DNA of 64,000 nt from NCBI GenBank assembly GCA_036679645.1, contig JAZDCY010000033.1, forward strand, positions 4,387 through 68,386, in the 5' to 3' direction. The notes under the pieces were generated by a model, which saw only the letters and a program-made list of their open reading frames with translations, was not told where the DNA came from and searched no databases. The DNA is from Gemmatimonadota bacterium. Lineage in GTDB: Bacteria; Gemmatimonadota; Gemmatimonadetes; Gemmatimonadales; GWC2-71-9. Shown piece after piece: positions 14,032-27,628 of the stretch; position 1 is the first letter of the stretch, and every line of letters begins with the position of its first letter. The position numbers and the translations under genes are program-made.

Positions 14032-14769
14032 GTGGTCACGATGCGCCGCACCGAATCGGACAGCCTCGATCGATCTCACGAACGACAACGCGCCACAGAT
14101 TCTCAAAGCGAGACGCGGCGGCAGTTGGAGCGAGCGTGGCGGGGGCAGGTCGCCGACGCCTCGAACGCGCTGAACAATCGGCTCGCCGCTGTTCGCAGCC
14201 TGGTCAAACAGGTCGACCGGTCCCGGATGAATCGATCGCAGGTGAGCGACCTTGACCAAATCGACACCGAGATTCAACACGCTAACGACATCATGGCCGA
14301 ATTGCTATACGGGGTCAGCGGCTTTACGCCCGGCACCGTCCCGCCCACGTTGGAACTATTGCATGAGGGTACCGTGCGGCCGGCGGACATCTTGGTCGTC
14401 GAAGACGACGTGAGCAATCGTGAGGTGATCACGCGCCTGTTCCAACGACTTGGGCACCGGGTGATCCCGGCGCGTGACGGCCTCGACGCGTTCGAGGCGA
14501 TGGACCTCACTGCGTTCGATTGCGTCATCTGCGATATCCGCATGCCGGGCTTGGGCGGGGGAGGGCTGTACCGCCAGGCGGAAGAACGGCACCCGCAGCT
14601 CGCCAGCCGGTTCGTGTTCGTGACGGGCGACTACGGGCGGCCGGATACGTACGAATTCGTGACGAACACCGGGTGCCTCGTGGTCCCGAAGCCGTACGAG
14701 ATCGACGAACTCCTCGGCGCCGTCGCCAAGACACTCCAAACGCGCAATCTCGGTCCAACCTCGCAGTGA
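14032..14769 (+). CDS. Response regulator (receiver domain) with an N-terminal HisKA/phosphotransfer-like helical region
   Basis: C-terminal receiver ILVVEDD...DCVICDIRMPG...VVPKP. The last 8 codons or so lie inside a copy of the island repeat core. Confidence 0.8.
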   Translation: MVTMRRTESDSLDRSHERQRATDSQSETRRQLERAWRGQVADASNALNNRLAAVRSLVKQVDRSRMNRSQVSDLDQIDTEIQHANDIMAELLYGVSGFTPGTVPPTLELLHEGTVRPADILVVEDDVSNREVITRLFQRLGHRVIPARDGLDAFEAMDLTAFDCVICDIRMPGLGGGGLYRQAEERHPQLASRFVFVTGDYGRPDTYEFVTNTGCLVVPKPYEIDELLGAVAKTLQTRNLGPTSQ

Positions 14770-14771
14770 GC
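14739..14771 (+). repeat. Isolated 33-nt core of the island repeat (AACGCGCRATCTCGGTCCAAYCTCGCAGTGAGC)
   Basis: 31/33 identical to the core found at about 21822, 22648, 23086 and 24256. Supplies the codons TRNLGPTSQ and the stop of the response regulator. Confidence 0.6.
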
Positions 14772-14781
14772 CAAGCCATCT

Positions 14782-18283: not shown

Positions 18284-18433
18284 CCTGTCAGGACCAAGTT
18301 CCCGCTCAGTAGCGTAGCGGGCTGCGGGTGCGGCTCCTTGGCGTTCGCGGTGCTCCCAGGTGCACAACGCAACGGCTCCCATACCCCACGAGCGCGCCCG
18401 ATCAGTCTGCAAGCGCGTTGCAGGCAGCGGGCC

Positions 18434-18811
18434 CTATCTGGTTCGAGATTCCGCCGTCTTGAGTTCAACGAGGATCACCTCCATTGGTTCGCCACGCAGA
18501 TTTTCCGGAAGGTGAGTTCCGGCCTCTGCCCATATCGTTTCACCGGCCCTTCCCTCAAAATCCACTGTTTGCCCATCGGGGAGCGTGAACTTGCCCGTGT
18601 TATCTGTAAGGAACACTACTACTCCGGCAGGATGATAGTGCATCACGGATTTCTCGTGCGGTCCGTACGTAATCCGGAGAACCCGGACCTGGTCGTTCTC
18701 GAAAACCACCCGGTAGTGCGTGGAGTCCACCACCGTGGGGTCTTGGGCCCAGGCACGCGCGGCAGCGAACGACGTCAGTGCGAGGAGCAGTGGGAGTACG
18801 CGCATGGTCAT
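18434..18811 (-). CDS. Secreted cupin domain protein
   Basis: Signal peptide MTMRVLPLLLALTSFAAARAWA, then a cupin-like beta-barrel sequence (…MHYHPAGVVVFL…). Confidence 0.7.
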   Translation of the reverse strand: MTMRVLPLLLALTSFAAARAWAQDPTVVDSTHYRVVFENDQVRVLRITYGPHEKSVMHYHPAGVVVFLTDNTGKFTLPDGQTVDFEGRAGETIWAEAGTHLPENLRGEPMEVILVELKTAESRTR

Positions 18812-19020
18812 CTCCGAGTCTAGGGACGATTCTCTGGTTGGCGGATACTCGCCCTTGTAGGCGGACTTGCAGGTGCTACCGTCGGGTGGCTCAGCGGTCT
18901 CATCGTCGGGCGCGCGTCCAGCAGGACGTCAGTGCGGCGGCGGTGCCATCTTCGGCCACCGAAGGCAAAGTAGACTAATATTATCGCCTATTATATCCAG
19001 CAGGCTTGAAGCCGCAAGTT

Positions 19021-19125
19021 GCTACACCCCGTTCGTGACATGGCGAACGCGCTGGGCGACGGTAACCAATGAGATCAATGCCTCGCGATGCTACCGCACT
19101 ACTGGTATTGGGGAACCCCCGATCG
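19021..19125 (+). repeat. Partial or disrupted copy of the island repeat
   Basis: GCTACACCCCGTTCGTGACATGGCGAACGCGCTGGGCG and GATGCTACCGCACT match the internal parts of the copies at 21.7, 22.5 and 24.1 kb. A degenerate left arm (CTTGTAGGCGGACTTGCAG) lies at about 18853-18880. Confidence 0.6.
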
Positions 19126-19127
19126 TC

Positions 19128-19607
19128 TTATTGATCCAGGGGCACGGGAGCCGGAGCATCGCTGGAAAAGCTGACCGACGCGATGAACCACTCGCCGTCG
19201 ATCTTCCGCCATGTAGCGAGGTACTTGCCAAGGTCGAAAAGATCTCCGTCCGGAGTCGTCAGCACCAGTCGGTTGACGCCGTACTCCCACGCCATGTCAC
19301 CGCGCTCCGATACCTCCGTATACGTCGTGGTGCTCCCGAACGACTTCACACCCGGGCCGAAGAACTGCTCAAAGAGCGCCCGCACGGCCTCGCGGCCTAC
19401 GGCCGGGGGACCGTCAGCTGGCAGCAACACGCCGTCAGGCGCCCAGAACGCGAGTGAGCCGTCGATATCGAACGCGGATTCGGCCGCGACGATGCCGGCC
19501 GAGCGAGCGCGAACAGCTTCGAGTTCGGCCTCCATGTCTACCCGCGGCGCGGCGCAGGCCACTATGGACGTGGCAGCAACAAAGAGGGTGGTGGAATTCC
19601 GGCGCAT
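19128..19607 (-). CDS. SnoaL-like / NTF2-fold (DUF4440-like) secreted protein
   Basis: Start MRRNSTTLFVAATSIVACA. NTF2-like core. Its last 22 codons or so are duplicated at 23223-23290. Confidence 0.7.
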   Translation of the reverse strand: MRRNSTTLFVAATSIVACAAPRVDMEAELEAVRARSAGIVAAESAFDIDGSLAFWAPDGVLLPADGPPAVGREAVRALFEQFFGPGVKSFGSTTTYTEVSERGDMAWEYGVNRLVLTTPDGDLFDLGKYLATWRKIDGEWFIASVSFSSDAPAPVPLDQ

Positions 19608-19806
19608 GGCGACCTCACGGGAGGAGTGCAACGATAGGGTACTGTGGCCGAATCAACAATTCTGTGGCGCGGGACGCGCACCCACGATGGGGCTCGTCCC
19701 GGTGGCTAAGTGAGGGTGGGGCGCGACTACATCGGCGTGCATGCCTGACGGTGGGAGCGGAACTCGGCACATTTACCATGTATTACGTTATACGTTATAT
19801 TCCGCC

Positions 19807-20103
19807 GTGATCCGAAGCTTCGCGACCCCTGGCACCCGGGACGTCTTCGATGCCACCGACTCCAAAGCGGCGCGGCGCGCGTGCCCGACAAGCCTCTGGA
19901 AGATCGCTCGCCGCAAGCTGGACCAGTTGAATCAGGCCCATGCGCTCGAGGATCTCCGAGCACCGCTGGCCAATCGACTGGAGAAGCTGAAAGGCGACCG
20001 GGCAGGACAGCACAGCATCCGGATTAACGACCAGTATCGCGTCTGCTTTGGGTGGACCGAGCACGAACCCGAAGATGTGGAGATCGTAGACTACCACCGT
20101 TGA
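19807..20103 (+). CDS. higB: HigB-type toxin (RelE/ParE superfamily, plasmid maintenance system killer)
   Basis: GTG start gives VIRSFATPGTRDVF... and ...QHSIRINDQYRVCFGW...VEIVDYH, typical of HigB. Followed 13 nt later by higA. Confidence 0.8.
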   Translation: MIRSFATPGTRDVFDATDSKAARRACPTSLWKIARRKLDQLNQAHALEDLRAPLANRLEKLKGDRAGQHSIRINDQYRVCFGWTEHEPEDVEIVDYHR

Positions 20104-20116
20104 GCGAGGTTGCTTC

Positions 20117-20449
20117 ATGACGACGTTGCCCAGACACCGACCGCCAACCCACCCGGGTGAGATGCTCCTTGAGGAGTTCTTGGTACCTCTCGACATGAGC
20201 CAGTCAGAACTCGCGGACCGGATCCATGTGTCTTATCCACGCGTGAATGAGCTCGTGAACGGAAAGCGAGGTGTCACGCCGGACACCGCTCTACGCCTCG
20301 CGAAGCTGCTCGGGACAACACCAGAATTCTGGCTGAACGGGCAGCAGAACTGGGACTTGTGGCATGCCGTGCACGCGCCCCAAGCAGTCGAACTTCGGGA
20401 GATCCGTCCGGTGTCACGCCGCTCGCGGAGCAAAGCGAGTTTCGCCTAA
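20117..20449 (+). CDS. higA: HigA antitoxin, XRE-family HTH
   Basis: HPGEMLLEEFL...MSQSELADRIHVSYPRVNELVNGKRGVTPDTALRLAKLLGTTPEFWLN is the HigA signature. The stop TAA is embedded in the motif GCCTAAC. Confidence 0.85.
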   Translation: MTTLPRHRPPTHPGEMLLEEFLVPLDMSQSELADRIHVSYPRVNELVNGKRGVTPDTALRLAKLLGTTPEFWLNGQQNWDLWHAVHAPQAVELREIRPVSRRSRSKASFA

Positions 20450-20454
20450 CTAGT

Positions 20455-20493
20455 CGCTCAGACCTGCAAGATGCATGAAAAAAGTTCGGTCAC
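20455..20493 (+). repeat. 39-nt direct repeat, copy A (CGCTCAGACCTGCAAGATGCATGAAAAAAGTTCGGTCAC)
   Basis: 38/39 identical to 25791-25829. Fills the gap between the convergent higA and PAS genes. Confidence 0.8.
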
Positions 20494-20494
20494 G

Positions 20495-21157
20495 TTACCG
20501 TTCTCGTTCTTGTAGGGGATCGTCCGTCGTGTCCGTATAGTGGGCTGCTTCACATGCAGGACAAATCCCGTGTGAGAACCGCGCCTCAGAGTGCTGACTC
20601 ACGTAGGTCTCAAGTTTCTGCCAGAATCCCTTGTCATTCCTGATGCTCTTGCAGTGCGAACAGATAGGCACGAGGCCCTTCAGCGTCTTGATATTGTCCA
20701 GGGCATGCTGCAGAGCGCGGTTCGCTTGCTCCAACTCCGCTGTTCTCTGCTCTAATCCTACCTCCGCCTTCCTGCGCAGCGTAATATCCTGAACAAGACA
20801 GCTCACGCCGATGATTCTTCCATTACCATCAGCGGTAATAGGGTGATAGTTGTGCATGAAGGTCCGCCGCACGCCTATTTGTGCCGGGGTCTCCGCCTCG
20901 ATCGTTCCCTCGATGATGGATGTGCGCGTCTTCATCACCATGCGCAGTTGAGCCTCGATTCCAGCCGCAACATTGGGAATCACTTCGCCCACCGTTCGTC
21001 CCAGGTGCTTCTCGACAGGCAAACCGTTCAGCCGGGCCAGCCATCGGTTGATGTACAGGTAGCGCAGGTCGGTGTCGAAGTAACAAAGGCCTACCGCCGC
21101 GTCGTCATAGGCGCAACGAAGGATCGCCTCGGAAGGGCGCTTCGCGGGCTCGCTCAT
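20495..21157 (-). CDS. PAS domain protein with a C-terminal Cys/His-rich LVPICSHCKSIRNDKGFW...FSHGICPAC module
   Basis: 220 aa: N-terminal PAS fold, a coiled-coil linker, then the conserved Cys-rich tail seen in many PAS sensor proteins. Confidence 0.75.
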   Translation of the reverse strand: MSEPAKRPSEAILRCAYDDAAVGLCYFDTDLRYLYINRWLARLNGLPVEKHLGRTVGEVIPNVAAGIEAQLRMVMKTRTSIIEGTIEAETPAQIGVRRTFMHNYHPITADGNGRIIGVSCLVQDITLRRKAEVGLEQRTAELEQANRALQHALDNIKTLKGLVPICSHCKSIRNDKGFWQKLETYVSQHSEARFSHGICPACEAAHYTDTTDDPLQERER

Positions 21158-21270
21158 ACGTCTTCACTCCTAGCAACGTGTCAATAGGGATTTGCTTTCC
21201 CCGGCTGGCCAAGCGCTTCAAAGATAGCATGCCGCCAGTTTGACGTGATCCTGCGGGTGTGGAAGTGGAA

Positions 21271-21693
21271 CTACGACTGCTCCCCGAACGCCGCGATTTC
21301 TTGGGCGTACGCCGAATCGAACTCCAGAGCCTCAACTAGTCGCGAAAGCTCGTTCGCGTAGGCTGGATTCGCCCCGGTTAGGCCCAATTCGCGAGGCAGG
21401 TTGTAACAGTACGCCTCGACAACCTGGTTGCTTGCCAACAGCGCCACCTGGACGCGCTCTCGTTTGTACGCGCGAACACTCGGTTCCGAGTAGAGCGCAT
21501 GAGCTTCTTGCTCCGAGAGCTCCATCACGATTCCATAGGCCCGACTCGAAGCGGACGGCAACAATGTCGCTCGCTCGCCGATGTGGATTCGGTAGTCGGA
21601 AAGCACCGCTGGCCCAATAGTTTCAGGGTGAAAACCCTTCTCGGCGAGAAGAGTCCGATCCATGAAGAGGCCGTAAAAGAAAATCTTGCTCAT
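21271..21693 (-). CDS. Gamma-glutamylcyclotransferase / AIG2-like family protein
   Basis: MSKIFFYGLFMDRTLLAEKGF... carries the YGxL/F motif of the GGCT fold. 140 aa. Confidence 0.75.
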   Translation of the reverse strand: MSKIFFYGLFMDRTLLAEKGFHPETIGPAVLSDYRIHIGERATLLPSASSRAYGIVMELSEQEAHALYSEPSVRAYKRERVQVALLASNQVVEAYCYNLPRELGLTGANPAYANELSRLVEALEFDSAYAQEIAAFGEQS

Positions 21694-21716
21694 AGGTGTC
21701 GAGCTGTCCGCCTAAC

Positions 21717-21950
21717 TAGTAATTGGACTGCATATGTCCATATGCACCCCACTCGCGAGAAGGCGCTGGGGCGAGGGGACTTCGTTACTAACCGCACTCC
21801 TGGTACTGGGAAGCCCCTGAACACGCGATCTCGGTCCAATCTCGCAGTGAGCGGTATCTTCTAAGGCGAGCCGCGCGATGACGGGGCACAACCCAACGAC
21901 TTCCTTACCGCACGTTAGTGCCCGCCAACTGCAAGCGCGTGTTTGGCGCC
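21717..21950 (+). repeat. Island repeat, full copy 1 (core 21717-21868 plus right-hand hairpin extension)
   Basis: Runs TCCGCCTAACTAGTAATTGGACTGCAT ... GAACACGCGATCTCGGTCCAATCTCGCAGTGAGCGGTATCTTCTAAGGCG, then GGCACAACCCAACGACTTCC...GCCCGCCAACTGCAAGCGCG...TTGGCG (hairpin). On the minus strand GTTAGGCGG lies 22 nt upstream of the GGCT ATG. Confidence 0.8.
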
Positions 21951-21952
21951 CG

Positions 21953-22186
21953 CTAGAACTCCCGCTTCTTCATTTCTGAGAAGAAGCTTTGCCGTTCTGT
22001 ATCCTCGTCCGTGTCCAGAGGCAAAGTGTCGTCGTGCCGACGCCGCGCCTTTCCTTTCGACTTGGCAGCCTTCGCAGCGTTCTTTCTCACCAAAGCGGCC
22101 AACTTCTTATCATCGCTGGTTGACATCGTTGCCACTCCAAACAGTCTCGAGGTGGATCCGTCTGCGGTGTGCGGTGCTCCCAACAT
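21953..22186 (-). CDS. Small Lys/Asp-rich hypothetical protein
   Basis: 77 aa ORF. The likely real start is MSTSDDKK at 22126 (57 aa). No family recognised. Confidence 0.4.
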   Translation of the reverse strand: MLGAPHTADGSTSRLFGVATMSTSDDKKLAALVRKNAAKAAKSKGKARRRHDDTLPLDTDEDTERQSFFSEMKKREF

Positions 22187-22330
22187 CCCTACGTATCATT
22201 TGCGGGCGACGTGCCCGTGAGCAACTTGCGTAGACTGAACGTGCACAATCCTCCAAAGCTCACTACTCAACGACCTCCTTACGCCACGGACGCGCCCGCC
22301 AGTCTGCAAGCACTTAACTTGGCGGGCCGC

Positions 22331-22504
22331 TCACTGGTAGCGGATCGCATAGTAGATGACGTAGACCCACGACAAGAAACCATGGATTATCGCCCACAGA
22401 ATTGACTTGTTGGCACTCCACGAGATGGCAATGGCCAGCGCTGCGCCGAAGCCGATGCCTGCCTTGGCGGCGTCCTTGGAGCCACTCCCCTTCTTTTCGC
22501 TCAT
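22331..22504 (-). CDS. Small (57 aa) two-TM membrane protein, below the ORF-track cutoff
   Basis: Own translation: MSEKKGSGSKDAAKAGIGFGAALAIAISWSANKSILWAIIHGFLSWVYVIYYAIRYQ. ATG at 22504, stop TGA at 22331-22333. Confidence 0.6.
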   Translation of the reverse strand: MSEKKGSGSKDAAKAGIGFGAALAIAISWSANKSILWAIIHGFLSWVYVIYYAIRYQ

Positions 22505-22523
22505 CCGGTACCCCCTGAGGCGG

Positions 22524-22695
22524 TCCGCCTAACTTGTAATTGGACTGCATACCTCCATAATGCTACATCGCGCTCGCGACATAGCGAACGCGCTGGGCGG
22601 GAGTAGCCTTCCTTACCACCGCACTCCGGCTATAGGGAACCCCTGAACGCGCGATCTCGGTCCAATCTCGCAGGGAGCGGTACCTTCTAAAGGCG
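22524..22695 (+). repeat. Island repeat, full copy 2
   Basis: Runs TCCGCCTAACTTGTAATTGGACTGCAT...GCTACATCGCGCTCGCGACATAGCGAACGCGCTGGGCG...GAACGCGCGATCTCGGTCCAATCTCGCAGGGAGCGGTACCTTCTAAAGGCG. On the minus strand GTTAGGCGG lies 24 nt upstream of the ATG at 22504. Confidence 0.8.
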
Positions 22696-22803
22696 AGCCG
22701 TGCATCAGTAGTCGGCGTTGCTGTACTGCAGAAGGGCCGCACAACAATGCGACTGGTGGTCAGTGTAGGATGAGCCGTACCTCTTTGAACCAGAGGGAGT
22801 CCG

Positions 22804-23010
22804 ATGGACGCTGACAAGAAAGCCAAGATCGCCCGGGTACTTGGCTACATCTTGCTGGCGGTCGGCGTGCTGAATCTCACGCTTGCCGGTGTGCAATTGG
22901 CCCGGGATCGGACCCAGGAGGGGTCACTTTTCGTGACTGGTTTCGTGGCCCTCGGGATGGGCATCATCATGGTTTCCCGAGGGAGGCAGAAGCCCACGCC
23001 CCGAGCTTAG
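22804..23010 (+). CDS. Small two-TM membrane protein, hypothetical
   Basis: 68 aa, MDADKKAKIARVLGYILLAVGVLNLTLAG...FVALGMGIIMV. Confidence 0.5.
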   Translation: MDADKKAKIARVLGYILLAVGVLNLTLAGVQLARDRTQEGSLFVTGFVALGMGIIMVSRGRQKPTPRA

Positions 23011-23029
23011 CGACGTGGTTGGCGTAGGG

Positions 23030-23208
23030 ATGAGATCAATGCAACGCGATGCTACCGCACTCCGAATATTGGCAAGGTTATGCACGCGCGATCTCGGTCC
23101 AATCTCGCAGTGAGCGGCATGTTCTAAGGCGGAACGAGCGGCGGGGCGCCGTGCCGCCCAAGCACACAACGCAACAGCTTCCCCACACGAACACGTCTGT
23201 CGTTGTGG
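23030..23208 (+). repeat. Island repeat, partial copy (right half plus right extension)
   Basis: Runs GAGATCAATGCAACGCGATGCTACCGCACT...CGCGCGATCTCGGTCCAATCTCGCAGTGAGCGGCATGTTCTAAGGCGGAACGAGCG...GCACACAACGCAACAGCTTCCCC. Confidence 0.7.
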
Positions 23209-23222
23209 ATCCCCCGATCGTC

Positions 23223-23290
23223 TTATTGATCCACGGGCACGGGAGTCGGAGCATCGCTGGAAAAGCTGACCGAGGCGATGAACCACTCGC
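23223..23290 (-). pseudogene. Remnant: duplicated 3' end of a SnoaL-like gene
   Basis: TTATTGATCCACGGGCACGGGAGTCGGAGCATCGCTGGAAAAGCTGACCGAGGCGATGAACCACTCGC is near-identical to 19128-19195. It encodes ...EWFIASVSFSSDAPTPVPVDQ plus the stop and has no upstream body. Confidence 0.7.
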
Positions 23291-23293
23291 GGG

Positions 23294-23447
23294 GCCCTGC
23301 GCGCGGTGTATCACGGTAGTGCGCACCGGACCGTGCTCAAGGAGTTTACCCGCGCCTACCAGAGTCTGGTCGAGGACTCCACGCGTGTGATGCTCCGGCT
23401 CAAAGCATTGCTCCGCGCCCGGGGGATCAAGACGCCCGGTACCGAGC
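23294..23447 (+). pseudogene. Internal fragment resembling an IS110-family (DEDD) transposase
   Basis: Own translation: ALRAVYHGSAHRTVLKEFTRAYQSLVEDSTRVMLRLKALLRARGIKTPGTERL. This resembles the helical linker region of IS110-like transposases. No start and no catalytic domain are present. Confidence 0.45.
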
Positions 23448-23486
23448 GCTTGCTAGGTGGCACCACAGTGTATTACATTGTATGAC

Positions 23487-23708
23487 ATGAAATCTACAGT
23501 ACTGACCATTCGCCTTGATCGCGATCTCGAGCGCCAACTCCGACGCATCGCCCGTCGGACCGGCCGTAGCCGTAGCGACATCGTTCGAGAGGCGCTCCGA
23601 CGCCAGCTCGCGCTGGCGCAGTTCGAGGACATCCGCCGCCGCATCATGCCGCTCGCTGAGGCTCGCGGATACCTCACCGATGAAGACGTCTTCCGCGATG
23701 TCTCTTGA
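23487..23708 (+). CDS. Ribbon-helix-helix (CopG/VapB-like) antitoxin
   Basis: MKSTVLTIRLDRDLERQLRRIARRTGRSRSDIVREALRRQL is an RHH signature. Overlaps the PIN gene by 4 nt. Confidence 0.75.
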   Translation: MKSTVLTIRLDRDLERQLRRIARRTGRSRSDIVREALRRQLALAQFEDIRRRIMPLAEARGYLTDEDVFRDVS

Positions 23709-24106
23709 GGGTGGCCCTCGACACGAACATCCTCGTCGCCGCCGTGGCGACCCGCGGCCTCTGCGCCGACCTTCTTCGTGTCGTCCTCGCGGAGCATCAA
23801 CTGATTCTCGGCCAAACAGTGCAGCGCGAGCTGCGCCGTGTTCTCCGATCGAAGCTCCGACTTGCTCCAGAAGTCATCACCGAATACGACGCATTCCTTG
23901 CGCGGCACGCAGTGCTTGCGGCGGCCACGGAGCCGGCCCCGATCTCCGTTCGAGATGCCTCCGACGAGCGCGTACTTGCGGAGGCCCTGGCAGGTGAGGC
24001 AGACGTTCTCGTAACCGGAGATCAAGATCTTCTCAGCGTCGCGAGCGAGTCTCCGATACTGATTGTCGATCCGCGGGGGCTGTGGGAATCGCTGCGCGGG
24101 AGATGA
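23705..24106 (+). CDS. PIN domain toxin (VapC-like)
   Basis: VALDTNILVAA...DERVLAEALAGEADVLVTGDQDLL carries the PIN acidic residues. TTG/GTG start at 23705/23711. Confidence 0.8.
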   Translation: MRVALDTNILVAAVATRGLCADLLRVVLAEHQLILGQTVQRELRRVLRSKLRLAPEVITEYDAFLARHAVLAAATEPAPISVRDASDERVLAEALAGEADVLVTGDQDLLSVASESPILIVDPRGLWESLRGR

Positions 24107-24128
24107 CCAGGGACACGCATCCGGCGGT

Positions 24129-24303
24129 GCCACCTAGCTTGTAGTTGGACTGACCACCATATCGCCAGATGCTACACCCCGCTCGCGACATAGCAAACGC
24201 GCGGGGCGAGGGGAACTTCGATGCCACCGCACTCCGGATATCGGGAAGCCCTGAACGCGCGATCTCGGTCCAATCTCGCAGTGAGCGCTACCTTCTAAGG
24301 CGG
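24129..24303 (+). repeat. Island repeat, full copy 3
   Basis: Runs GCCACCTAGCTTGTAGTTGGACTGACC...GCTACACCCCGCTCGCGACATAGCAAACGCGCGGGGCG...GAACGCGCGATCTCGGTCCAATCTCGCAGTGAGCGCTACCTTCTAAGGCGG, followed by the palindrome GCGCCTAAAGGCGC. Confidence 0.8.
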
Positions 24304-24382
24304 AACGAGCGCCTAAAGGCGCGTGCGGTGGGTGGCGTTTTGGTGGGAACACGAAGCCAGATCCCTCTTTCCAGAGGCACAG

Positions 24383-25291
24383 ATGGCTGTACCGGATTTC
24401 CAGAGCTGGTTCTTACCTCTCCTGAAGCGGGTAGCCGACGGAGAGAGTCACCGCCTGTCAGACCTCTACGAGGAGTTGGCGCAGGATCTTGACCTCTCGG
24501 ACGAGGACCGCGCGGAAGAGTTGCCAAGCGGCAAGCAACTCACGTATCGCAACCGCATCGGTTGGGCCCGTACGTATCTGAAGAAGGCAGGGCTTCTTGA
24601 GTCGCCAGCCCGAGGCGAATGCAGAATAACAAAACGTGGAATCGAGGTTCTAGCACAGGACTTGGAGCGTGTGGATGTCAAATTCCTAAAGCAGTTTCCT
24701 GAGTTCGAGAAGTTCCACACCTATAAGCCTTCCGGCCCAGGTGAGGGGGGTCCGGACGGAGAGGTCGTCAGCGCCACGCCAGAAGAACTTCTCGAGCAGT
24801 CGCACGGGGCCCTCAAAGACAACGTCACGCAAGAGCTTTTGGAGCGCGTGAAGGCAGCACCCCCATCGTTCTTTGAGTCCCTAGTAGTGGATCTCCTTCT
24901 ACGCATGGGTTACGGCGGTTCACGCGAGGATGCCGGCAAGATCGTCGGCCGCTCCGGTGACGGTGGCGTCGATGGAGTGATCAACGAGGATCGACTTGGT
25001 CTTGATGTGGTATACATCCAAGCGAAGCGGTGGGAAAACACGGTTGGCCGACCGGTGGTTCAGGCCTTTGCCGGTAGCTTGGAAGGAGTCCGAGCACGCA
25101 AGGGCGTACTCATTACAACGTCGGATTTCTCTTCTGAAGCGCGCCAGTACGTTTCCCAGATCGAAAAGCGCATCGTCCTGGTAACTGGCCAGCAGCTCGC
25201 GAACCTCATGTTCGAGCACAACATTGGCGTAAGCTCCGTTGCCTCGTATGAAGTGAAGAAGGTCGACACCGACTTCTTCGAGGAGGCGTAG
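24383..25291 (+). CDS. mrr: Mrr family restriction endonuclease (Mrr_N winged helix plus Mrr catalytic domain)
   Basis: Start MAVPDFQSWFLPLLKRVADG... C-terminal ...GDGGVDGVINEDRLGLDVVYIQAKRW...VLITTSDFS is typical of the Mrr catalytic domain. Confidence 0.85.
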   Translation: MAVPDFQSWFLPLLKRVADGESHRLSDLYEELAQDLDLSDEDRAEELPSGKQLTYRNRIGWARTYLKKAGLLESPARGECRITKRGIEVLAQDLERVDVKFLKQFPEFEKFHTYKPSGPGEGGPDGEVVSATPEELLEQSHGALKDNVTQELLERVKAAPPSFFESLVVDLLLRMGYGGSREDAGKIVGRSGDGGVDGVINEDRLGLDVVYIQAKRWENTVGRPVVQAFAGSLEGVRARKGVLITTSDFSSEARQYVSQIEKRIVLVTGQQLANLMFEHNIGVSSVASYEVKKVDTDFFEEA

Positions 25292-25346
25292 GCCTTCGCA
25301 CGACCCGCGCTAGGAGCTGCCGGGGGCTACGGGAGGGCACGTACCG

Positions 25347-25790
25347 TTGGGAACGACCAGCCGCATCAGAGCAACGGTTCGGGGCTGGCAGCCCGGTCAG
25401 TTCGCGATCGTTTGTCTTATCGCAATGGTGACCGAGGGTGGCCTCTACTGGGGCTATCGGGAGCTCGACGCTAGAGTCGACAGGATTGACAGATCCTGGG
25501 AACACTTGTTCGAGCTCCAGCAGCAGCGACTGCGAGATGGCTGTACATCCAGAACGGTGTCTTCGATTCCGCACAGGCGGCCACAGACTTCTTTGTCTCG
25601 GTAGTCGGCTCGACGGCAGGCAAGCAAGATGCTCGGGCGGTACGCGATCTGGGGCATGGCATTATCACACCGGTCATGGTGCTCGTGTTTGTCGGGATGC
25701 TTGTTGTGTCGTGGCAGTGGTTTGGCCGAGGGTCGCCAGGGGCAACAGCACACAAGCCTGGGCCGCCATCGACCGGAGCAGCCTAGCACA
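25347..25790 (+). pseudogene. Possible frameshifted hypothetical membrane protein
   Basis: ORF 25347..25604 (…FAIVCLIAMVTEGGLYWGYRELDARV…) appears to continue in another frame (…GIITPVMVLVFVGMLVVSWQWF…). Weak call with no family. Confidence 0.3.
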
Positions 25791-25829
25791 CGCTCAGACC
25801 CGCAAGATGCATGAAAAAAGTTCGGTCAC
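25791..25829 (+). repeat. 39-nt direct repeat, copy B (CGCTCAGACCCGCAAGATGCATGAAAAAAGTTCGGTCAC)
   Basis: 38/39 identical to 20455-20493. Both copies are preceded by a GCCTA(A/G)C-type motif. Confidence 0.8.
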
Positions 25830-25887
25830 CAAACCCAGGGAGTAGCCCCGAGAAACAGACCAAGCTAACCACTTGGCTCTCTTATAG

Positions 25888-25905
25888 TTGCCCCGCCTGG
25901 GATCG
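25888..25905 (-). repeat. 18-nt duplicate of the 3' end of tRNA-Gln (att-like scar)
   Basis: TTGCCCCGCCTGGGATCG at 25888-25905 is identical to 25982-25999 (T-arm, acceptor and 3' end of the tRNA). Confidence 0.7.
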
Positions 25906-25981
25906 CAGCCGCAGCGTCAGCAAGGCCGAGCCCCGGTGGGGCAAACGCAAAACGGCGCGGCTACCGCCGCGCCGTTTGCGA

Positions 25982-26054
25982 TTGCCCCGCCTGGGATCGA
26001 ACCAGGACTCTTCTGATCCAGAGTCAGACGTGTTGCCAGTTACACCACGGGGCA
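25982..26054 (-). tRNA. tRNA-Gln (anticodon CUG)
   Basis: Hand-folded cloverleaf: acceptor UGCCCCG/CGGGGCA (U1-A72), anticodon loop CUCUGGA, T-loop UUCGAUC. CCA is not encoded. Confidence 0.9.
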
Positions 26055-26055
26055 G

Positions 26056-26128
26056 TGGAGCTGAGGGGGCTCGAACCCCTGACCTCCTGGGTGCGATCCA
26101 GGCGCTCTCCCAACTGAGCTACAGCCCC
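26056..26128 (-). tRNA. tRNA-Ala (anticodon CGC)
   Basis: Acceptor GGGGCUG/CAGCUCC with G3-U70, A73, anticodon loop AUCGCAC, T-loop UUCGAGC. CCA is not encoded. One nucleotide separates it from tRNA-Gln. Confidence 0.9.
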
Positions 26129-26136
26129 TAAAAGCT

Positions 26137-26168
26137 AGACGCACAGACGCTCAGACGCGCAGACACGG
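26137..26168. repeat. Degenerate tandem octamer (AGACGCNC) x4
   Basis: Reads agacgcac agacgctc agacgcgc agacacgg, directly upstream (minus-strand sense) of the tRNA pair. Same word as the 27.5 kb array. Confidence 0.5.
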
Positions 26169-26323
26169 AACCCCGCCAAAGTGTCGGCGGGGCCGGTGGA
26201 AGTCAAAGCTAGAAAGGCAGTTGTGGGGGGTCAAGGCTGGTGGGAGGACCCACTTGCCAACGGGGATGGAACACCTCGGCATTCCATGCGTTATTCAAGG
26301 CACCCCATGATTCCGGAGATTCC

Positions 26324-27480: not shown

Positions 27481-27500
27481 GCAGGCAGCACACCGACAGG

Positions 27501-27563
27501 CGCTCAGACGCTCAGACGCTCAGACGCTCAGACGCTCAGACGCTCAGACGCTCAGACGCTCAG
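27501..27563. repeat. Perfect tandem octamer (CGCTCAGA), about 7.9 units
   Basis: cgctcaga repeated from 27501 to 27563, between the second and third cupredoxin genes. Confidence 0.9.
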
Positions 27564-27628
27564 TTCATGGCGCTACGCAGGGCGTGGCATACCGCAAGCA
27601 ATCAACGTGCTCTCAACAGGATTTTCTC

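Follow-up and report, generated by a model that had tools for sequence, protein, structure and literature searches.

The window analysed here, a 64-kb stretch of a Gemmatimonadales chromosome (contig JAZDCY010000033.1), contains between ~14.7 and 26 kb a region that, by comparison with a related strain, is a strain-variable island, in which small genes are separated by copies of a ~170-bp repeat. Coordinates are positions within the window, and the "top strand" of the array is the minus strand of the window. We consider it probable that the island holds a decayed integron-type cassette array resembling a CALIN, a cluster of attC sites lacking an integron integrase (PMC4889954), and that the repeat is its attC-like site. 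In the related strain (contig L017), 90% DNA identity extends across a response-regulator gene, and beyond window position 14736 the two sequences are unrelated; the next gene in L017 is related to a window gene only as a paralogue (25% identity). This point of divergence coincides with the start of the first repeat fragment (14736-14781, minus strand), which marks the left border, and the accessory island therefore spans ~14.7 kb to the tRNA-Gln at 25982. A first-pass annotation, made from the sequence alone, had linked a cassette reading to strain-to-strain variation of the intervening genes, with which the break in L017 agrees. The right border is formed by tRNA-Gln(CUG) and tRNA-Ala(CGC) genes (25982-26128, minus strand), the pair already placed there in the first pass and now retrieved with both ARAGORN and Rfam.

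Pfam profiles agree with the gene content proposed earlier. The minus strand encodes a cupin (18434-18811), a SnoaL/DUF4440 protein (19128-19631), a gamma-glutamyl cyclotransferase-like protein (GGACT, gene 21271-21693 within a cassette at 21245-21715), a 77-aa open reading frame (ORF; 21953-22186) and a 57-aa membrane protein (22331-22504, unit 22331-22532), the leader of which begins G|TTAGGCGGACCGCC. On the plus strand are a HigB-HigA toxin-antitoxin (TA) pair (19741-20449; PF05015 and PF01381) and an RHH antitoxin with a PIN toxin (23457-24106; PF01402 and PF13470), both inverted relative to the array, as well as an Mrr-type restriction endonuclease (24383-25291; PF14338 and PF04471). A PAS protein was also confirmed by Pfam. 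Chromosomal arrays typically carry cargo of this kind, here two inverted TA pairs, Mrr and tiny ORFs, and the first reading had rightly drawn this likeness for the TA pairs and the restriction enzyme. Homologues of the 57-aa protein are widespread, mostly in ordinary chromosomal contexts, two of which lack the repeat. Upstream of each TA operon lies an AT-rich box, GTATTACGTTATACG (19772-19805) in one case and GTATTACATTGTATG (23465-23487) in the other; the two boxes are alike and are likely operator or promoter sequences, and a promoter scan flags one of them.

The repeat was located by a repeat search of the window and with an nhmmer profile built from its three full copies, which are found on the minus strand at 21707-21878 (copy 1), 22524-22706 (copy 2) and 24129-24312 (copy 3, with its R' box mutated to GCTAGGT) with E-values of 1e-53 to 1e-59. 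Both searches recovered the three full copies described in the first-pass annotation. Of the partial copies, also on the minus strand, one consists of the 5' arm and part of the middle (23047-23140, E 2e-21), and another, at 19014-19124 (E 6e-14, profile positions 59-151), retains the middle and a degenerate 3' arm without the 5' arm and sits immediately after the SnoaL/DUF4440 ORF. The fragment at the left border is a solo 5' arm fused to the response-regulator gene (E 7e-07). All six copies retrieved with nhmmer share one orientation within 10 kb (14.7-24.3 kb); elsewhere in the window (~54 kb) the profile has no match. An even scatter, which would speak against a cassette array, is not what the window presents: six copies occupy 10 kb of its 64 kb. 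In addition, a 12-nt stump of the 3' arm that includes the R' box (ACTAG|TTAGGCG) is located at 20441-20455 (minus strand), with GTTAGGCG at 20443-20450; the remainder of this copy has been replaced by a fragment of a tRNA-scar module (20454-20493, E 1e-06) described below. Other earlier assignments fared less well. A supposed partial copy at 23030-23208 is a composite of a repeat fragment, a hairpin and a fragment of a second module, and the profile gives no match at E<=1 to the degenerate left arm proposed at 18853-18880. A core reported at 14739-14771 does belong to a repeat, but its placement outside the island does not hold, as the repeats reach further left than had been supposed.

Among the full copies, the 5' 55 nt are 91-94% identical and the 3' 23 nt 83-96%, while the middle is 64-76% identical and contains indels. 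Protein coding by the repeat was considered and rejected, since these indels break every frame between copies. In copy 1, a 5' arm (CGCCTTAGAAGATACCGCTCACTGCGAGATTGGACCG) is followed by the variable middle and a 3' arm (CAGTCCAATTACTAG|TTAGGCGG), and each full copy ends on the minus strand in GTCCAAT-TACWA-G|TTAGGCGG (GCTAGGTGG in copy 3). The window contains three instances of the 21-nt end motif GTCCAAYTACWAGYTAGGYGG, against an expectation of zero, and three of the four window occurrences of GTTAGGCG fall at island junctions. The arms form the imperfect inverted repeats seen in the first pass: ATTGGACCG pairs with CAGTCCAAT as L'' and L' boxes, with the spacers TGCGAG and TACAA. A candidate inner R'' (CCGCTCAC) lies 6 nt before L'', and an outer R''-like sequence (CCGCCTTAG), which resembles the extended R'' (CCGCCTAAC) of canonical attCs in GGACT contexts, lies 20 nt further out. 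Measured to GTTAGGC, the repeat is ~140 nt long from the inner R'' and ~165 nt from the outer one.

Searches for relatives returned very little. A core 20-mer gave two chance hits across 185,579 GTDB representative genomes and was otherwise absent, and in JGI metagenomes it was found in one contig, L003. An exact-core scan of IMG/VR detected no true relatives, blastn against plasmids detected none, and no further copies were reached through spurious ORFs translated across the repeat. L003 encloses two partial copies in an arrangement unlike that of the window; one is fused directly to a 29-nt tRNA-Gln 3' fragment, and between the two lies a 58-nt piece of the response-regulator 3' end. In the window, the last codons and the stop of the response regulator (14032-14769) are supplied by the repeat fragment at 14736-14781, and homologues elsewhere are 20-40 aa longer than the window protein; the homologues are named as Gemmatimonadales or Gemmatimonadota. 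The fusion and the orphaned piece in L003 thus mark the repeat as a frequent breakpoint in this lineage. Compared with its L017 counterpart (1068-1793), the window gene has the repeat fragment in place of its native 3' end, and it is this end that persists as an orphan at 370-430 of L003. The native regulator sequence ACGCTCGATCGCG is similar to the repeat core ACGCGCGATCTCG, and this similarity may have guided rearrangements.

A family that is tiny, private to one lineage and represented by many truncated pieces could stem from a single ancestral intergenic segment, duplicated locally and without present function, particularly as another local duplication is present in the array (99 nt of the SnoaL 3' end at 23192-23290, 90% identity). 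We nevertheless regard this origin as quite improbable, given that unrelated genes begin at the same nucleotide after each copy, that the arms are far better conserved than the middle and that the L003 copies are differently arranged.

All four junctions in the window read (A/T)AG|TTAGGCG or AAG|CTAGGTG. What begins there differs each time: copy 1 leads into GGACT, copy 2 into the 57-aa ORF, copy 3 into the inverted RHH-PIN pair and the 12-nt stump into the inverted HigBA pair. The higA stop codon (TAA) is, as had been noticed before, embedded in GCCTAAC at 20444-20450, the complement of TTAGGC. At the level of sequence comparison, these junctions demonstrate that cassettes were joined at the G|TT of the repeat.

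The GGACT cassette, which opens with G|TTAGGCGGACAGC, begins 23 nt upstream of its start codon (ATG at 21693) and can be followed beyond this genome. The identical 140-aa protein is encoded on 12 contigs from several metagenome projects, with differing neighbours (PadR, BrnT and unknown ORFs); its coding DNA matches that of the window at 419-422 of 423 positions (>=99% identity on at least nine other contigs), with abrupt breaks in the flanks. Five contigs (L006, L008 and L010-L011 among them) are identical to the window over 23 nt upstream of the ATG, two over 24-25 nt, two over 20-21 nt and L005 over just 3 nt, and the shared DNA begins at G|TTAGGC in L006, L008, L010-L013 and the window. 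Where this identity extends to the G of GTTAGGC, it is preceded by unrelated sequences that resemble attC 3' ends (L', ~6 nt, GTTAGGC). Elsewhere, canonical attCs (57-132 nt, with a bulged L'' base) are found downstream of GGACT, starting 47 nt after the stop, for example at 661-790 of L011 (GCCTAAC..CCGTTGGA....TCAACGG..GTTAGGC). In the window, the homology ends 26 nt past the stop and the gene is not followed by an attC of its own, which has been lost. Blastn against plasmids detected no relatives of the cassette. The comparison between contigs shows the GGACT gene to be a mobile integron gene cassette with the classical boundary G|TTAGGC. Because the same G|TT boundary and canonical attCs accompany GGACT elsewhere, the minus-strand GTTAGGC is a real cassette boundary, in line with the significance that the first-pass annotation had attached to this motif upstream of the GGACT ATG. 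The same comparison establishes the window minus strand as the top strand of the array, so that GCCTAAC at the left end is the complement of R' and not, as had been thought, a plus-strand inverse core. In one further contig (L009, ~492-510), the GGACT stop directly precedes CGTTAGGT, which looks like an attC deleted to a fused R''/R' remnant.

The repeat was compared with 14 reference attCs, seven of them clinical (class 1 integrons on plasmids) and seven from GGACT contexts; the aadA1 attC was confirmed at 100% identity in R100. An R' box of the form GTTRRRY with a G|TT junction is present as GTTAGGC in two full copies and the stump and is altered to GCTAGGT in the third full copy, and inverted 9-bp L''/L' repeats lie 5-6 nt inside the R boxes. 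With respect to attC (the 59-base element) and the Vibrio repeats (VCRs), the repeat shares the R''-L''...L'-R' layout with 7-9-bp L boxes and 5-6-nt spacers, an R' GTTAGGC with the crossover G|TT ~140 nt from the inner R'', and conserved arms around a variable centre with branched local hairpins. Since it has the junction position, the L boxes and R', the repeat occupies the place and layout of an attC. It differs from these elements in its CGCTCAC R'', its perfectly paired L box, its far lower folding stability and the extra conserved 20 nt ending in the R''-like CCGCCTTAG. Setting aside the shared R' flank, its middle has no similarity to the canonical attCs of GGACT contexts. There are also resemblances to attI sites. 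As in attI1 (...GCAGTCGCCCTAAAACAAAG|TTAG...), a double-stranded simple site is formed by an L-like box, a 5-6-nt spacer and G|TT, although this similarity is short and may be due to chance; attI sites likewise have a longer conserved upstream region with direct repeats (CGAGAT N5 CGAGAT), and cassettes start right after the site. However, an integron has one attI beside intI, and here there are several copies and no intI.

A number of observations weigh against reading the repeat as an attC and the island as an integron-type array. No copy has AAC in R'': the inner box is CGCTCAC (CAC) and the outer GCCTTAG (TAG), whereas each of the 14 reference attCs has AAC in its R'' and GTTA in its R'. 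All 9 bp of the L box are paired and no base is extrahelical, whereas the control attCs (GGACT contexts and class 1 integrons) all need a bulged L base for best pairing. Using the outer R''-like CCGCCTTAG introduces an asymmetry of 16 nt. Folds of the bottom-strand DNA are weak (z -1.8 to +0.8, -0.14 to -0.17 kcal/nt) compared with those of six control attCs (z -0.9 to -6.8, -0.18 to -0.34 kcal/nt); the minimum free energy fold uses the stems of the ends and L boxes, and the middle forms small local hairpins instead of one long stem. A rule-based attC scanner, which recovers five attCs in the class 1 integron regions scanned as well as environmental attCs, finds nothing at the repeats of the window; over the whole window, it returns 18 matches, compared with 6-13 (mostly 8-11) in shuffles. 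The repeat is known from this strain and the single short contig L003 alone. GGACT is the sole cassette shown to move: the other proteins occur in the same sample or in ordinary contexts, and exact-protein look-ups of the 57-aa and 68-aa proteins, RHH, Mrr, HigA, PAS and SnoaL retrieved nothing or the same sample alone. Lastly, no integrase is known for this genome, of which the search covered the window. There, no ORF between 4 and 35 kb matched Phage_integrase (PF00589) in Pfam, the best tblastn match of IntI1 over the 64 kb had an E-value of 1.4, and a six-frame regular expression for tyrosine-recombinase motifs returned nothing, so that the earlier impression that no integrase is visible stands. 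With no intI within ~10 kb, the array resembles a CALIN and not a complete integron.

The integron-cassette reading of the first-pass annotation holds for the island, whose GGACT cassette is mobile, and in part for the repeat, which has R' and the L boxes but neither AAC, nor a bulge, nor a strong hairpin; the caution voiced there about a non-classical attC was well placed. From the CAC/TAG R'', the bulge-less L box and the local hairpins, it follows that the repeat either works as a non-canonical variant or is a degenerate relic. Most likely, to judge from its position and layout, it is the recombination site of this array in one of these two states.

The weak folds also bear on the suggestion of a structured RNA. 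The repeat might be transcribed as such, or serve as a promoter or leader unit for downstream genes, as it has conserved small local hairpins with one possible compensatory change (CCCCA/TGGGG vs CCCCGC/GCGGGG), a promoter-like box (TTGCTA-N16-TAGCAT, minus strand) in two or three copies, and ORFs just downstream of two copies. The check by folding and Rfam did not support it: z-scores are near zero, and Rfam 15 has no match at the repeats even at E<=5, only tRNAs passing the gathering score. Moreover, the promoter/terminator scan flags no conserved sigma-70 site, one full copy lacks a downstream gene on the same strand, and the downstream ORFs belong to independent cassettes, with the boundary between them and the repeat. 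A role in RNA or transcription is accordingly extremely doubtful.

The inverted arms could instead mark a miniature inverted-repeat transposable element (MITE), possibly derived from IS110/IS1111, that parasitizes the attC sites of a real array. Known IS1111-attC elements insert near the attC 5' end in antisense orientation (PMC3001079, PMC11187229), and a 45-aa fragment similar to IS110-family transposases is encoded within the array (23291-23420, plus strand). One L003 copy starts exactly 6 nt before ATTGGACCG, reminiscent of the 6-7-nt terminal extension of IS1111 ends. The repeat further resembles IS1111-attC insertion sequences (ISs) and MITEs in being tied to attC positions, in having one orientation relative to the array and in its inverted-repeat arms. 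However, the fragment, the sole trace of a transposase, matches PF01548 positions 111-151 at E 0.0055, below the Pfam cutoff; it resembles the end of the DEDD domain and has no significant relatives among plasmids. No copy has a target-site duplication, the inverted repeat measures 9 bp and not 11-13, and taking the element out leaves no canonical attC. Compared with IS1111-attC elements, the repeat lacks a transposase, is too short and is in the wrong position, and it supplies the L'/R' end itself instead of interrupting an attC: its 3' arm (L'-spacer-G) occupies the position of the attC end in other GGACT contexts. All copies are clustered in a single orientation, and outside the window the core occurs, bar chance hits, in no GTDB representative and in one JGI contig. 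An origin as a MITE is on these grounds distinctly unlikely, and both it and the structured-RNA reading have less support than that of a cassette array.

Two further repeat families are present in the island. The first is the second module mentioned above, which the first-pass annotation had correctly separated from the repeat. On the minus strand, nhmmer locates it directly after the cupin stop (18356-18431, E 2e-19), after the 77-aa ORF (21877-21951) and after the 57-aa ORF, upstream of the 77-aa ORF (22253-22326), so that the 77-aa ORF is flanked by two copies (21877-22326); a fragment lies beside the partial repeat (23158-23202). It always lies immediately 3' of the stop of a minus-strand ORF and consists of a GC-rich hairpin with a conserved loop (GCTTGCAG) and differing stems, followed by a conserved tail (CGTGGNGTAAGGRAGNCGTTGNGTWGTG). 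No Rfam family matches it. The module was also considered as a short attC, which was rejected because it offers neither an AAC R'' nor pairing between L boxes.

The second family, the tRNA-scar module, is ~150 nt long and lies beside the tRNA pair (25787-25939, plus strand, nhmmer E 9e-51). It ends in a decayed second tRNA-Gln 3' end (TTGCCCCGCCTGGGATCG, 25888-25905), 76 nt from the real tRNA-Gln, and occurs three times in L003 (~1737-1885, 511-605 and 2721-2807; E 2e-52, 1e-12 and 4e-10), where its copies separate small gene sets; the partial window copy is that at 20454-20493. These modules look like scars of repeated integration at tRNA-Gln by elements of which no integrase is left. One may then ask whether the repeats themselves are attachment leftovers of elements accreting at tRNA-Gln, with GGACT as an incidental passenger. 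The island adjoins this tRNA, its decayed 3' end recurs in the modules of both contigs, and one L003 repeat fragment is fused to 29 nt of the tRNA-Gln 3' end. However, the repeat has no similarity to tRNA and is a family separate from the tRNA-scar module, the window contains no tyrosine integrase or remnant of one, and the junctions after the repeat correspond to the G|TTAGGC integron crossover, which matches the GGACT boundary elsewhere. We give this explanation little credence.

Under the cassette-array reading, the repeat (~140 nt from CCGCTCAC to GTTAGGC, plus the conserved 20-nt extension) would be the cassette recombination site of this lineage, at which an IntI-type tyrosine recombinase, encoded elsewhere or since lost, would have joined circular cassettes at G|TT. 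We infer both the action of such an enzyme and that the whole repeat is the site. Once integrase activity had been lost, deletions, local duplications, an IS fragment and point mutations would have degraded the array. Signs of decay include the missing attC of GGACT, the SnoaL duplicate, the truncated repeats, the mutated R' of copy 3, the IS fragment and an ORF with a frameshift (25347-25790). CALINs are common and may form through loss of intI or rearrangement (PMC4889954), and integrons have already been recorded in Gemmatimonadota, chromosomal arrays typically having homogeneous, lineage-specific attCs (PMC8618304). Like CALINs and the sedentary chromosomal arrays of Xanthomonas and Vibrio (PMC4889954, PMC12444791), the island combines small, mostly promoterless, unrelated genes with G|TTRRRY boundaries and homogeneous, lineage-specific sites in a chromosomal, strain-variable location, and it contains inverted TA pairs and a defence gene with no intI within 10 kb. 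It differs from them in lacking AAC in R'', the extrahelical base and a strong hairpin, and in having just three full sites, heavy decay and a tRNA neighbour with tRNA-fragment scars. A more far-reaching possibility, which we regard as unlikely, is that the repeat is a working near-symmetric site, with identical GTCCAAT boxes on both strands, CAC in place of AAC and no extrahelical base, that a divergent Gemmatimonadota integrase would use on either strand. Such use would account for genes facing both ways and would represent a new class of integron recombination site.

The locus appears to document integron-type cassette traffic into a Gemmatimonadales chromosome, involving a GGACT cassette that is common to many environmental samples at >=99% identity. 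The sites of the array break the rules on which current detection tools rely (AAC/GTT triplets, bulged bases and a strong hairpin). If such sites are functional, they escape standard searches, and the known range of integron sites, and possibly that of integrase specificities, is too narrow. If they are relics, the island would provide a clear example of the decay of a cassette array after integrase loss.

Outside the array, tandem 8-nt repeats (CAGACGCT) are found beside the tRNA pair (26128-26175, three units) and between cupredoxin genes (27489-27568, seven or more units). Rfam, unlike ARAGORN, scores 51956-52057 (minus strand) as a tRNA (53 bits). Its D arm is of class II (Leu-like), its anticodon loop reads CUUGGGA (anticodon UGG, proline) and its variable arm, at 30 nt, is unusually long; a pseudogene is one possibility, a tRNA of odd identity another.

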